Shown in pieces: positions 1-13,260 of a stretch of 16,169 bases of DNA (the first letter of the stretch is position 1; each line of letters starts with the position of its first letter). The notes beneath the pieces were generated by a model that did not search any database, was not told the origin of the DNA, and was given only the letters and a program-made list of their open reading frames with translations. The translations under genes and the position numbers were made by a program. The DNA comes from a virus (Duplodnaviria; Heunggongvirae; Uroviricota; Caudoviricetes), in the IMG/VR virus record IMGVR_UViG_2540341091_000001, positions 1 through 16,169 of that record; one strand, written 5' to 3'.

Positions 1-474
1 ATGTACAGTCCGGTACAAATAGCCAATAAATTCATAACGTTGGGAAACCAACATCATAATCCTCTGACCCACATGCAACTGCAGAAGCTTACTTATATTG
101 CCCATGGTTACTATTTAGCATTAACAGGTAAGCCTTTGCTCAATGAATGTGTCTCCGCGTGGAAGTACGGTCCAGTTATTCCTGGAATGTACGATGCTTT
201 CAAAGACTATGGGAATAAACCTGTTACGAATGTAGCAGTAGCTCCTTTTGGTGGCATCGTTACTATGGATCCGCAAGCAGAGAGCATTATCGGGGCTGTT
301 TATAAGTTTTACGGCTCGAAAAATGGAATTGAGTTATCAACTCTAACTCATATGCCAGGTACGCCTTGGTCACAAGCTTATAATGGTATTGGCTCGTCGA
401 TCATCTCAAATGATGCGATCAAGGCTTATTATCATGATTTATTGAATAACCGACAGCAATGTCAGGGCCTCTGA
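1..474 (+). CDS. Panacea-domain (DUF4065; GepA/SocA-like) protein, putative antitoxin or phage-associated protein; start coincides with window edge so the true N-terminus is unverified
   Basis: ORF-track translation contains the motifs I associate with the Panacea domain (LQKLTYIAHGYYLALTGKPL, AWKYGPVIP, THMPGTPW). Followed 22 bp later by a co-directional membrane-protein gene. Family assignment is from memory. Confidence 0.6.
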   Translation: MYSPVQIANKFITLGNQHHNPLTHMQLQKLTYIAHGYYLALTGKPLLNECVSAWKYGPVIPGMYDAFKDYGNKPVTNVAVAPFGGIVTMDPQAESIIGAVYKFYGSKNGIELSTLTHMPGTPWSQAYNGIGSSIISNDAIKAYYHDLLNNRQQCQGL

Positions 475-496: not shown

Positions 497-1045
497 ATGT
501 CTCATAATTCAGATATCTATAAACTGATCGGAGCGGCCGCAGGTGTTGAAAATGGTCGCTCTGAAGCATCCTTAAACTCTACTGACAGTCAAGAGCAGGC
601 TTTTGAATCCGCATTTGAGCCGTCTAATCATGAACGCGATGATGATTCTTCTTCAGAAAATAAGGCTATTCTGGAGGAAGAAGAGTTTGGTTCTAATACT
701 GGTGCATTGCATGAGTTTATGCAGCAGAACAGAATGGACAGTCTTCAAGCTCAGCTTGATATGCTCAAATCACAAGTACGGGATAAGATAGCTGACGCAA
801 CTGGTAAAGAAATAGACAATGAGCTCCGGACAAAAATGGCATCATTCACGGTTTGGTTTATGTCGTGTTGGTGCTTATTCGTTGTCGCAATGTTTACATC
901 GTTTCTTATTGCACATGAAGGAAAGGCTCCAGTTGAAGCGATCGTTGCATTACTAGGTACAAGTACAATTAGTATTGTTGGTTTGGTTGGTTTCGTTGTT
1001 AGTGGATTGTTCAAATCAAGAAAAGATAGTGATAAAGAAAAATAA
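497..1045 (+). CDS. hypothetical protein with acidic, Ser/Glu/Asp-rich N-terminal half and two C-terminal transmembrane helices; candidate toxin/effector partner of the Panacea protein
   Basis: ATG at 497 preceded by AGGGA at 488-492. Hydrophobic stretches WFMSCWCLFVVAMFTSFLIA and AIVALLGTSTISIVGLVGFVVSGLF. No recognisable catalytic motif. Confidence 0.5.
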   Translation: MSHNSDIYKLIGAAAGVENGRSEASLNSTDSQEQAFESAFEPSNHERDDDSSSENKAILEEEEFGSNTGALHEFMQQNRMDSLQAQLDMLKSQVRDKIADATGKEIDNELRTKMASFTVWFMSCWCLFVVAMFTSFLIAHEGKAPVEAIVALLGTSTISIVGLVGFVVSGLFKSRKDSDKEK

Positions 1046-5036: not shown

Positions 5037-5258
5037 ATGAAAGCGTATTGGGACTCTTTAACCAAAGAACAGCAGGGTGAGTTGGCCGGAAAAGTTGGCT
5101 CAACACCAGGCTACTTACGGCTGGTTTTCAATGGTTATAAAAAAGCCAGTTTTGTGCTGGCTAAAAAACTTGAGCAATGCACGTCAGGTGCAATTACGAA
5201 ATCTGACTTAAGACCGGATATCCCACAGCCAGTATCAGCGATTTGCTGGTTGTGGTGA
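5037..5258 (+). CDS. Cro/YdaS-like small DNA-binding protein
   Basis: 73 aa from ATG 5037 with GGAGG at 5022-5026; HTH-like segment LAGKVGSTPGYLRLVFNGYKKASFVLAKKLEQCTSGAI. The longer track ORF (4734-5258) overlaps cI antisense and is rejected. Confidence 0.6.
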   Translation: MKAYWDSLTKEQQGELAGKVGSTPGYLRLVFNGYKKASFVLAKKLEQCTSGAITKSDLRPDIPQPVSAICWLW

Positions 5259-9403: not shown

Positions 9404-9697
9404 ATGAAAATGGGTATAACACCTTTCCTTCATGCACTTTGTGCTGTGGCTGCGCAGATACTGGTGGGGCTTTTTACCGGAAACTGGGTTTACGGAGCGA
9501 TAGCCAGTTGTACGTTCTTCATTGCGGGCGAACACACCCAAGCATAATATCGCTGGATTGAAATGTTCGGGCATGGCAAGCGGATTAACATGCCGTGGTG
9601 GGGCGGTTTTGATCCACGCGCATGGGATGTGGCAAGCCTGATGGATTTTGCTGTGCCGATGGTAGCGTGTCTTCTGATCTGGCTGTTGATCCGTTGA
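9404..9697 (+). pseudogene. small hydrophobic (membrane) protein gene interrupted by an in-frame TAA at 9545-9547
   Basis: Frame from ATG 9404 gives MKMGITPFLHALCAVAAQILVGLFTGNWVYGAIASCTFFIAGEHTQA, then TAA, then continues in the same frame for 49 codons (YRWIEMFGHGKRINMPWWGGFDPRAWDVASLMDFAVPMVACLLIWLLIR) to TGA at 9695-9697. Not in the ORF track because each half is under 60 aa. Confidence 0.35.
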
Positions 9698-9705
9698 ACA
9701 TAAAA

Positions 9706-9741
9706 AGCCGCAGCAACTTGCCATGGCAGGATACTGCGGCT
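9706..9741. terminator. putative bidirectional terminator between the small membrane-protein gene and the convergent RT gene
   Basis: 8-bp stem AGCCGCAG (9706-9713) / CTGCGGCT (9734-9741) with a 20-nt loop containing the palindrome TGCCATGGCA; A-run upstream and T-rich DNA downstream. Confidence 0.3.
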
Positions 9742-9804
9742 GGTTTGTGAGTTTAAATAGTGTGTTTATTGCGATATATTTTAATGACTTAATGGATTAC
9801 ATAT

Positions 9805-10668
9805 CTATGATATTCCTGAAATATCCTCTTCAAGCTCTTTTACTGATTTCGCAATTTTAAATTTAAACTTCCTCTCTATTTCACTATTGCTAAGTTTTTT
9901 TTCCTTCTCTTTACCTATCCACATAGAAACAAGTTCTCGTTTCTGAGATATATGTAGATTGTCAAAGTTAGGTATGTATTTAAAAGTCTCCGCTCTACCT
10001 CTGCGGAGTTCATAGAAAGTTTTAATCAAAGATTTTGGTTTTATTTCTGATGAAAGGCCGAATCGGCGGATAAGATTATTGATAGTATGATTAACAGAGC
10101 GAAGTTGAGCTGTTGAGGTTATTTGTGAGAAGTACGATACCCATCCCAATCGTTTACCTTCAAACACACATCCCGTAATTCTGAGATTTAGTTTCCACTG
10201 ACAATATGCAACAGCTCGTTCTTTATCACGCTTACTTTTAGCTTGTAGTAGAGCGTGCCTATATGCAGTAAAAATTTTTGCTAAGGATGACTCAAATCTA
10301 AGAATGCTCTCATGTTTTATCAATAATTCTCGATTTTCTATGTGGTATCCCAAAAAGTTAAAACTTTCATCCAAACTGCCTACTTTGGATTTTGAGTTCT
10401 CTTCATTTAATGGATGTGGGTTTAAATTTAATGATTGAAGCTTATCAATGATATGAGAAGCTATTTTTGTTGCTTGATATTTTGGTGTTAAAATAAGAAT
10501 GTCATCAACGTATCGCATGTACCATATGTCATGCATTTTATTGATTTCATCATCGAAATTAGATAGTGATATTTCAGCTAAAATGTTTGATATCGCTAAT
10601 CCCTGAGGTACTCCTCTGGTATTATTAGGGATACCTTTGCTTCCTGTGGTTCCACTTACAGTAGGCAC
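9805..10668 (-). CDS. reverse transcriptase, C-terminal segment (motifs 3-7 and a 170-aa C-terminal extension); in the -1 frame relative to the N-terminal segment
   Basis: Translation has GVPQGLAISNILAEI (motif 3/4), YMRYVDDILIL (the YxDD active site) and FNFLGYHI (motif 7). The track start is a GTG; this frame is open upstream to a TAG at 10708-10710, so it spans the A6G site of the upstream segment. Confidence 0.8.
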   Translation of the reverse strand: MPTVSGTTGSKGIPNNTRGVPQGLAISNILAEISLSNFDDEINKMHDIWYMRYVDDILILTPKYQATKIASHIIDKLQSLNLNPHPLNEENSKSKVGSLDESFNFLGYHIENRELLIKHESILRFESSLAKIFTAYRHALLQAKSKRDKERAVAYCQWKLNLRITGCVFEGKRLGWVSYFSQITSTAQLRSVNHTINNLIRRFGLSSEIKPKSLIKTFYELRRGRAETFKYIPNFDNLHISQKRELVSMWIGKEKEKKLSNSEIERKFKFKIAKSVKELEEDISGIS

Positions 10669-10685
10669 GATTAATGATGATGTTA

Positions 10686-11174
10686 TTAACTGTCTAATTT
10701 CTTTTTTCTAATTTTATTTTTTATTGCATTAATTATCAATTTATGTTCAATTGAAGGATAGAAACTTTTAAGATCTATTTTTGCATATTCAGCATATAGA
10801 CTGTTGTTTAATGCTTCTTTCAATGAGTCAATTACTGTATGTGGTAGTTTTAATCTGGACTTAGGATATATTTCCGTAAGGCATTCACAGAGAGCTCTAA
10901 GAGTAATTCTGTCCCTAGCAGTTGGTATGGAAATCTGTCTGGGTGTAGAGTTAGCGCCTTTAGATATTAATTTTTCTTTATATGCTGTAAATTTGTAATT
11001 GCCAGAATTAACCTTTTCAAAAATGAAAGTGATCTCATTTTTTATTGTCAAATCAAGTTTTGATGGGCGAATCCGATCTATGCCAATCGCTCCTGATTCT
11101 TTGATTTTTTCAGAGTATACTTTTAGAAGATTTTTTTTCGAGAATGACTTTTTAAAAATTCTGCTTGCAGTCAT
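10686..11174 (-). CDS. reverse transcriptase, N-terminal segment (fingers, motifs 1-2); frame ends 15 nt after an A_AAA_AAG heptamer
   Basis: ATG at 11174 (the track begins at a TTG at 11180). Motifs GIDRIRPSKL, PRQISIPTARDRITLRAL and AKIDLKSFYPSI. Start overlaps the 3' end of the upstream membrane-protein gene by 23 nt. Confidence 0.75.
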   Translation of the reverse strand: MTASRIFKKSFSKKNLLKVYSEKIKESGAIGIDRIRPSKLDLTIKNEITFIFEKVNSGNYKFTAYKEKLISKGANSTPRQISIPTARDRITLRALCECLTEIYPKSRLKLPHTVIDSLKEALNNSLYAEYAKIDLKSFYPSIEHKLIINAIKNKIRKKKLDS

Positions 11175-11703
11175 AGTCAATCCAAAGATATATTAATGGG
11201 AGTATATAAAGTGCGGCAGTAATAAATATTCGAAGTAATATCCATAAAATAACAATTATTTTTTCTTTTTGTGTGGGGATCCTCGTCTTAAGTCCAACTT
11301 GAGTTACCCTTGAAATTTTATCATCTATGTCACGGTGATTCTCAACCTCATTGAGCAAATTAAAATATTTTTCTTTCTGTTCAAGAGATAACTGTTGACT
11401 GGTGGTAATGTCAAAATAGAGTCGCTGTAGTGCAATATAATTCCTTCTCATGGCTATTGCTCGACCACGAAAATCTAGGTTAGATACGATCAGAGAAATA
11501 CCCAGTAGAGCCACTGAAAGTATCGCCGCAACGACATCTGTATTATCTCCTAGAACCTTTGGAAATCGCAACGTTACAATTGAAAGTACCGCACTCAATA
11601 TAGCATACCAAACGAGGATAAATTGAGAGTGTTTTTCAAGCCATTCTAGTCGATGGTGCGCTTGGATACGTGCTTTATATGTAAACCAAATATTGTCATG
11701 CAT
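11152..11703 (-). CDS. multi-pass membrane protein (two N-terminal TM helices plus a C-terminal hydrophobic helix), possibly SLATT-like; candidate effector partner of the RT
   Basis: 183 aa; hydrophobic segments FILVWYAILSAVLSIVTL, VVAAILSVALLGISLIVS and IIVILWILLRIFITAALYILPLIYLW around a charged helical middle. Translationally coupled to the RT. SLATT assignment is an unverified guess from architecture. Confidence 0.6.
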   Translation of the reverse strand: MHDNIWFTYKARIQAHHRLEWLEKHSQFILVWYAILSAVLSIVTLRFPKVLGDNTDVVAAILSVALLGISLIVSNLDFRGRAIAMRRNYIALQRLYFDITTSQQLSLEQKEKYFNLLNEVENHRDIDDKISRVTQVGLKTRIPTQKEKIIVILWILLRIFITAALYILPLIYLWIDYDCKQNF

Positions 11704-11727
11704 AAAAGATCCTTTTTAAAAGCGGAA

Positions 11728-11808
11728 GGGGCAGGATATATTGGAACCGTTGAACATCCTGCCCGGCAGGATCAGTGAGCATAAGCTCAACAGTAAAATA
11801 TTACTGTT
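11728..11808 (-). other. structured 5' leader of the membrane-protein/RT operon (candidate cis-regulatory RNA or RT-associated ncRNA)
   Basis: 9-bp stem GGGCAGGAT (11728-11736) / ATCCTGCCC (11755-11763) with an 18-nt loop; 20-bp palindrome AACAGTA-AAATAT-TACTGTT (11789-11808). Confidence 0.3.
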
Positions 11809-11865
11809 CATTATCAGAGCCGCCCTTGCATGCGCAAGAGGAAAAACCTGCCCCATCCCTTTGAA

Positions 11866-11894
11866 TTATTACAATTTAATGATCTTAAAGTCAA
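11866..11894 (-). promoter_or_regulatory. candidate sigma70 promoter for the membrane-protein/RT operon
   Basis: Minus strand TTGACT (plus 11889-11894), 17-bp spacer, TAATAA (plus 11866-11871); about 30 bp from the IS2 left end. Confidence 0.3.
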
Positions 11895-12015
11895 TACAAG
11901 TGAATGGTGTCCAGAGATGATGAATAGACTGGCCCCCTGAATCTCCAGACAACCAGTATCACTTAAATAAGTGATAGTCTTAATACTAGTTTTTAGACTA
12001 GTCATTGGAGAACAG

Positions 12016-12381
12016 ATGATTGATGTCTTAGGGCCGGAGAAACGCAGACGGCGTACCACACAGGAAAAGATCGCAATTGTTCAGCAGAGCTTTGAACCGG
12101 GGATGACGGTCTCCCTCGTTGCCCGGCAACATGGTGTAGCAGCCAGCCAGTTATTTCTCTGGCGTAAGCAATACCAGGAAGGAAGTCTTACTGCTGTCGC
12201 CGCCGGAGAACAGGTTGTTCCTGCCTCTGAACTTGCTGCCGCCATGAAGCAGATTAAAGAACTCCAGCGCCTGCTCGGCAAGAAAACGATGGAAAATGAA
12301 CTCCTCAAAGAAGCCGTTGAATATGGACGGGCAAAAAAGTGGATAGCGCACGCGCCCTTATTGCCCGGGGATGGGGAGTAA
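12016..12381 (+). CDS. insC: IS2 transposase OrfA (InsC)
   Basis: [41 protein letters not shown]... is the IS2 InsC sequence; ATG 12016 with GGAG at 12007-12010. The track ORF from 11971 is an upstream extension. Confidence 0.9.
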
Positions 12382-13244
12382 GCTTAGTCAGCCGTTGTCT
12401 CCGGGTGTCGCGTGCGCAGTTGCACGTCATTCTCAGACGAACCGATGACTGGATGGATGGCCGCCGCAGTCGTCACACTGATGATACGGATGTGCTTCTC
12501 CGTATACACCATGTTATCGGAGAGCTGCCCACGTATGGTTATCGTCGGGTATGGGCGCTGCTTCGCAGACAGGCAGAACTTGATGGTATGCCTGCGATCA
12601 ATGCCAAACGTGTTTACCGGATCATGCGCCAGAATGCGCTGTTGCTTGAGCGAAAACCTGCTGTACCGCCATCGAAACGGGCACATACAGGCAGAGTGGC
12701 CGTGAAAGAAAGCAATCAGCGATGGTGCTCTGACGGGTTCGAGTTCTGCTGTGATAACGGAGAGAGACTGCGTGTCACGTTCGCGCTGGACTGCTGTGAT
12801 CGTGAGGCACTGCACTGGGCGGTCACTACCGGCGGCTTCAACAGTGAAACAGTACAGGACGTCATGCTGGGAGCGGTGGAACGCCGCTTCGGCAACGATC
12901 TTCCGTCGTCTCCAGTGGAGTGGCTGACGGATAATGGTTCATGCTACCGGGCTAATGAAACACGCCAGTTCGCCCGGATGTTGGGACTTGAACCGAAGAA
13001 CACGGCGGTGCGGAGTCCGGAGAGTAACGGAATAGCAGAGAGCTTCGTGAAAACGATAAAGCGTGACTACATCAGTATCATGCCCAAACCAGACGGGTTA
13101 ACGGCAGCAAAGAACCTTGCAGAGGCGTTCGAGCATTATAACGAATGGCATCCGCATAGTGCGCTGGGTTATCGCTCGCCACGGGAATATCTGCGGCAGC
13201 GGGCTTGTAATGGGTTAAGTGATAACAGATGTCTGGAAATATAG
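12339..13244 (+). CDS. insD: IS2 transposase OrfB (InsD), normally made as an OrfAB fusion by -1 frameshift at A6G (12333-12339)
   Basis: 301-aa DDE-type integrase-fold protein matching IS2 InsD; slippery A_AAA_AAG at 12333-12339 lies in the orfA/orfB overlap. Confidence 0.9.
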
Positions 13245-13260
13245 GGGCAAATCCATGAAC

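Follow-up and report, generated by a model that had tools for sequence, protein, structure and literature searches.

A one-base contraction of an A-run splits the reverse transcriptase gene of a DRT10 locus in the Escherichia coli APEC O78 sequence

Sequence comparison across E. coli genomes identifies the frame break in the reverse transcriptase (RT) gene of the window analyzed here (the whole stretch of 16,169 nucleotides, identical to E. coli APEC O78 NC_020163.1 237704-253872) as an ordinary contraction by one base, from A7 to A6, private to this sequence. Both the gene and the system to which it belongs, DRT10, were already known, and the break is nothing new in kind. The slippery heptamer A_AAA_AAG found at the break is, judging from the sequence of intact alleles, a by-product of that deletion. 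The finding has little significance beyond annotation, where two RefSeq proteins, WP_244428875.1 and WP_244428874.1, each turn out to be half of a single DRT10 reverse transcriptase.

The DRT10 locus and its split reverse transcriptase

The APEC O78 window represents a decayed lambdoid prophage integrated at dusA, with an integrase, a DinI-like gene, a copy of IS2, the RT locus, and tail-fibre genes. The features of the RT locus are as follows.

9805-10701, minus strand: C-terminal part of the RT in the -1 frame, containing the catalytic motif YVDD and ending in Ser456
10686-11174, minus strand: N-terminal part of the RT in the 0 frame, 162 aa from ATG, stop codon TAA at 10688-10686
10701-10707, minus strand (approximately NC_020163.1 248404-248410): site of the one-base contraction, where A6 followed by G makes up the A_AAA_AAG heptamer; in relatives the G follows A7
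11152-11703, minus strand: intact gene for a SLATT effector of the SLATT_5 family, 183 aa, two-TM, RefSeq WP_000543834.1
11724-11859, minus strand: predicted, intact DRT10 (UG17-A) ncRNA of ~136 nt, from fold and covariation, both ends inferred
11865-11894, minus strand: promoter-like site TTGACT-18-TG-AATAAT, 10 of 12 matches plus an extended -10 TG, a consensus match only
11925-13254: IS2, with the target duplication ATGAA at 11920-11924 and 13255-13259

On the minus strand the N-terminal RT frame ends in AAA ATT AGA AAA AAG AAA TTA GAC AGT TAA, with the heptamer phased X_XXY_YYZ and its AAA and AAG as 0-frame codons. The -1 frame meets its last stop, a TAG, at 10710-10708 and stays open from that point to 9805. 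The initial annotation, made from the sequence alone, had described an RT frame that breaks at A_AAA_AAG and continues open in the -1 frame, and the sequence reads as it described. The fused RT that it proposed from a -1 slip was likewise reconstructed exactly, giving a product of 456 aa (...IRKK-EIRQLITSSLIVPTVSG...) that matches the PADLOC model RT_UG17 from end to end (E = 1.2e-158, residues 1-456 on model positions 1-429 of 429) as well as Pfam RVT_1 (E = 8.3e-21). This exact 456-aa protein was found on at least 1000 public contigs, and the 162-aa product on 2-4. RefSeq annotates the gene in two pieces, WP_244428875.1 as a 'hypothetical protein' (10686-11174) and WP_244428874.1 as an 'RNA-directed DNA polymerase' (9805-10668, 287 aa from the GTG at 10668). 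The DRT10 RT, by definition one ORF, is present in this assembly as ORFs of 162 and 287 aa, and is continuous in every relative inspected.

DRT10 consists of a UG17 RT, a SLATT protein, and an upstream ncRNA, and acts in anti-phage defense; the RT copies the ncRNA into protein-primed tandem-repeat cDNA, and defense requires all three parts (PMC12632851; bioRxiv 10.64898/2026.04.29.721553). The SLATT ORF of the window matched PADLOC RTasSLATT (E = 1.5e-56) and Pfam SLATT_5 (E = 1.3e-28). The two genes lie in the order SLATT-RT, with the SLATT gene overlapping the RT start (11174) by 23 nt. Ser456 is the protein-priming residue in the RT of Eco3DRT10 (PMC12632851), and a C-terminal serine was kept in 14 of 14 RT homologues from other genera.

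An Rfam scan of positions 9600-12100 matched the DRT10 ncRNA to no family, its sole result being a chance microRNA match, and the ncRNA was therefore identified through folding and covariation. The 220-nt interval separating SLATT from IS2 folds (z = -2.89) into a basal stem around four stem-loops and a single-stranded template loop. Furthermore, 14 of the 34 consensus pairs showed pairing-preserving changes on both sides in a set of 13 homologous sequences from 5-6 genera (Escherichia, Buttiauxella, Photorhabdus, Pseudomonas, Stutzerimonas). The unpaired template loop contains CAA-CGGUUC-CAA, an A-B-A' pattern with a period of 9. Published DRT10 ncRNAs lie upstream of SLATT, measure ~137-143 nt, and carry a template loop with an A-B-A' repeat (PMC12632851; 2026 bioRxiv preprint); the position and architecture predicted for the RNA at 11724-11859 agree with this description. 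The promoter-like site is placed to start the ncRNA, its last base lying 6 nt upstream of the 5' end predicted for that RNA.

Apart from the RT frame, the locus is by its sequence a complete DRT10 of the Eco3 type, with defense and cDNA synthesis as predicted functions. It resembles Eco3DRT10 (Tang et al. 2025, PMC12632851; Sanchez-Nieto et al. 2026, bioRxiv 10.64898/2026.04.29.721553) in its three-part order of ncRNA, SLATT_5, and RT, the two protein genes overlapping, in an RT of 456 aa with YVDD and a terminal Ser456 equivalent to the published priming residue, and in an ncRNA of ~136 nt with a central stem, four stem-loops, and an A-B-A' template loop of 9-nt period. A tyrosine recombinase adjoins the locus, as it does in two of the three E. 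coli systems that were tested. It differs from Eco3DRT10 in the RT frame, broken here by one absent A, and in the template loop, which reads CAACGGUUC here and CAAUGAUUC in the published system. The published Eco3 template was found at the same place in strain MLI121, two bases different from the APEC O78 loop; on this comparison, E. coli alleles that are otherwise nearly identical differ in their template. The loop CAA-CGGUUC-CAA predicts a tandem-repeat cDNA of GAACCGTTG.

The A-run in other genomes and the slippery heptamer

The locus was present in 188 of 5426 complete E. coli genomes. A 63-mer carrying A6 matched perfectly in one of these 188, APEC O78 itself, and a 63-nt query with the A6 version of the other main allele matched perfectly in none of them. 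The other 187 genomes differ from the A6 sequence at the site, and every one inspected carries A7 and a single intact 456-aa RT. All ten relatives that were fetched, including alleles 90-95% identical over the locus, read TTAG-AAAAAAA-GAAATTAG, and in a spread sample 59 of 59 other records had one extra base together with a single CDS annotated as 'reverse transcriptase domain-containing protein'. The RT of isolate 23, the closest relative and a carrier of the same IS2 insertion, differs by that one base only. Each of the 14 RT homologues from other genera is encoded by one unbroken ORF, with the peptide K-[IV]-R-K-x-E kept around the site and the A-run absent. In two Logan contigs A6 is accompanied by further homopolymer errors at other places in the gene, a pattern typical of uncorrected long reads.

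The wild-type site reads AG-A AAA AAA G-AA, and loss of any one A gives AG-A AAA AAG AAA. The heptamer stands in phase at the break because one A lost from A7G necessarily leaves A6G here, and a -1 slip restores the wild-type protein because the heptamer is the product of that same loss. A slippery heptamer exactly at the frame break is what any one-base deletion in A7G leaves, and it speaks for recoding only where the break is conserved. In the window as a whole, AAAAAAG occurs 7 times against 5.25 expected, no commoner than by chance.

These comparisons bear directly on programmed -1 frameshifting, by which a fixed ratio of the 162-aa product and the full-length RT would be made, as in dnaX or the IS3-family transposases. 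The likeness to those sites lies in an identical heptamer, correctly phased, on which a slip gives a longer, functional-looking product, here a complete RT; the same heptamer serves the IS2 copy in the window at 12333-12339. The sites differ in that the break here is unconserved, with the A6 sequence in 1 of 188 E. coli loci and in 0 of 14 homologues from other genera, and in that the heptamer arose by a one-base deletion in A7G. They differ also in their surroundings, since no hairpin, pseudoknot, or Shine-Dalgarno (SD)-like element accompanies the heptamer: the 101 nt 3' of it fold like their shuffles (z = -0.13), and the 25 nt 5' of it consist of A and T only, with no GGAG-like sequence. 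The initial annotation had seen neither a strong downstream hairpin nor an upstream SD-like element, and both observations are borne out. Heptamers of the A_AAA_AAG class lacking stimulators shift at ~0.3% in E. coli, and at no more than ~3.7% in the best 3' context (PMC4066793). Moreover, the DRT10 papers (PMC12632851; 2026 bioRxiv) describe single RT genes and never use the word 'frameshift'. With the break unconserved and stimulators absent, programmed frameshifting was rejected and is considered highly improbable. Among the three explanations that the initial annotation had left open, regulated -1 frameshifting thus falls, with A7 in frame in the relatives inspected and A6 a singleton among 188, the very pattern that the annotation had named as refuting; an indel, either a mutation or an error, stands.

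A further reading takes the A7 run as a phase-variable tract, kept as a slippage-prone switch of a self-toxic system that would be off at A6 or A8 and on at A7. Length variants do occur, A6 in APEC O78 and Zam_UTH_34 and A8 in GCA_045582745.1, A7 was kept in all E. coli alleles sampled, and toxicity of DRT10 has been reported; against this, variants are rare (1 of 188 complete genomes), several variant contigs come from error-prone long-read data, retention of seven bases is expected by chance at a divergence of 10% or less, and the run is absent at this site in homologues from other genera. Slippage of an A7 tract in mismatch-repair-proficient E. coli is also much too infrequent to sustain classical phase variation. 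We regard such a tract as quite unlikely, and slightly more so a version in which A7 would act as a low-frequency contingency switch with recurrent A6 and A8 off alleles, the A6 allele being 'dimmed' through -1 slippage and not null. The A8 record, GCA_045582745.1, also carries two substitutions adjacent to the tract.

Origin and consequence of the missing base

As an indel, the break has the properties shared by homopolymer frameshift pseudogenes and by 454 or Nanopore miscalls: a single-base change in an A/T run that is private and splits an otherwise identical gene. No feature here distinguishes it from that category, to which it belongs. The preferred reading, held with even confidence, is a genuine slippage mutation that switches DRT10 off in APEC O78. 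Replication slippage would contract the A-run of the lysine codons, changing AGA AAA AAA GAA to AGA AAA AAG AAA, and we infer that the base is absent from the DNA itself. Loss of RT function is plausible, given the reported toxicity of DRT10 in the absence of SbcB.

Homopolymer under-calls are the typical error of 454 sequencing, and coverage is usually lowest in AT-rich regions; the region of the break is AT-rich, with 33% GC. The APEC O78 assembly took 454/Newbler contigs as its reference sequence and corrected them with ~539x Illumina reads (PMC3622999). A serious competitor to mutation, given a little less than even weight, is an artefact, in which the DNA of the strain would carry A7 and encode an intact RT, the homopolymer having been under-called in a 454-derived contig and missed by the Illumina correction. 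Consistent with an artefact, more than 30 genomes carry intact A7 alleles that agree with this one at every other base. Furthermore, APEC O78 shows three private single-base deletions within 16 kb, all of them contractions of A/T runs, against ~1 private SNP, a ratio counted as too indel-rich for normal mutation. When SNPs were polarised with a third genome, EC130, the APEC O78 branch carried ~3 private SNPs and 3 private deletions, a balance that favors neither mutation nor error. The two deletions other than that in the RT gene are as follows.

3233, yfdQ-yfdP intergenic region: private deletion of one base (A here, AA in four relatives)
13254, end of IS2: private one-base deletion, the terminal A missing, in repeated DNA

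Both lie in multi-copy DNA, where correction fails for another reason; the RT gene occurs only once in APEC O78, which favors a real mutation. The 500-bp segment around 3233 occurs in five places of that genome, and the deletion there is for this reason likely a consensus artefact. The argument that three clustered private deletions must all be assembly errors is weakened, as two of them lie in repeated DNA.

Several comparisons count for a real mutation and against an error, as does the correction with ~539x Illumina reads. In 50 kb of adjacent unique sequence, APEC O78 differs from isolate 23 by 5 SNPs and 0 indels, and the 2.1-kb SLATT-RT segment, which includes two A8 runs, equals the nearest relatives exactly, the one-base gap aside. 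The same A6 was found independently in Zam_UTH_34, in an allele 30 SNPs away, where it is the only indel in 5.3 kb; this assembly has a Canu/Nanopore backbone polished by Pilon with MiSeq reads. The Nanopore backbone of Zam_UTH_34 was counted against a real mutation, as were the two further A6 contigs, which are visibly noisy. Independently disrupted RT copies in other E. coli assemblies were counted in its favor, as was the A8 variant in GCA_045582745.1.

If the deletion is real, the 0 frame would yield 162 aa that hold, of the RT motifs, only the N-terminal ones and lack YVDD and the priming Ser456. Because catalytic and Ser456 mutants of DRT10 lose defense (PMC12632851), A6 would leave the system essentially off in APEC O78. 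Some ~0.3-4% of ribosomes might slip by -1 on A_AAA_AAG and make the exact wild-type RT, so that the allele would be slightly leaky, perhaps to the degree indicated by reporter data from other sequence contexts. Leaky frameshift alleles rescued by slippage are known from 'savior' indel correction (PMC5009743) and from AAA-AAA in pDEST17 (PMC1851650). As in the 'savior' alleles, loss of one base from a run of A's in lysine codons leaves a sequence prone to -1 slippage, and the slip restores the protein; the difference is that rescue here is derived from published reporter values. A genuine mutation would mean that APEC O78 has a switched-off, possibly slightly leaky copy of a defense system that is intact in its closest relatives, which would be relevant when the strain serves as a phage host.

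Other features of the prophage and of related RT loci

Three further genes of the prophage are of note.

1-474, plus strand: Panacea-domain protein (RefSeq annotation)
497-1045, plus strand: 182-aa hypothetical protein, following the Panacea-domain gene
9410-9697, plus strand: small gene with an internal stop in APEC O78 and near relatives, where it is annotated as a pseudogene

The first two (1-1045) may form a PanA-type toxin-antitoxin pair in the same prophage. The small gene at 9410-9697 is intact (288 nt) in HCM-28C-2 and MLI121.

A deletion junction was located at window ~5212-5222, where isolate 23 has ~8 kb of extra prophage DNA, from ymfL to the tail-tip gene gpJ; according to the RefSeq annotation, truncated gene remnants flank the junction on both sides. 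Over 66 kb, all seven substitutions between APEC O78 and isolate 23 are transitions (window 2458 and 3200, and five in the adjacent sequence), too few to argue for a mutator history.

The IS2 insertion separates the DinI-like gene from the putative promoter of the DRT10 ncRNA and lies 31 nt upstream of the -35 box. It is common to isolate 23, EC130, and MS20649 and is absent from A1_181 and others. The APEC O78 copy measures 1330 bp, without the terminal A that is present in isolate 23, EC130, and MS20649.

In other E. coli assemblies the RT is interrupted ~25 nt downstream of the A-run, equivalent to window ~10669-10678, which would be an independent route of RT inactivation. Five of these contigs start at an identical base, and one contig shows foreign sequence ending AGATGTGTATAATAGACAG, which we take to resemble an end of the IS4/IS50 type.
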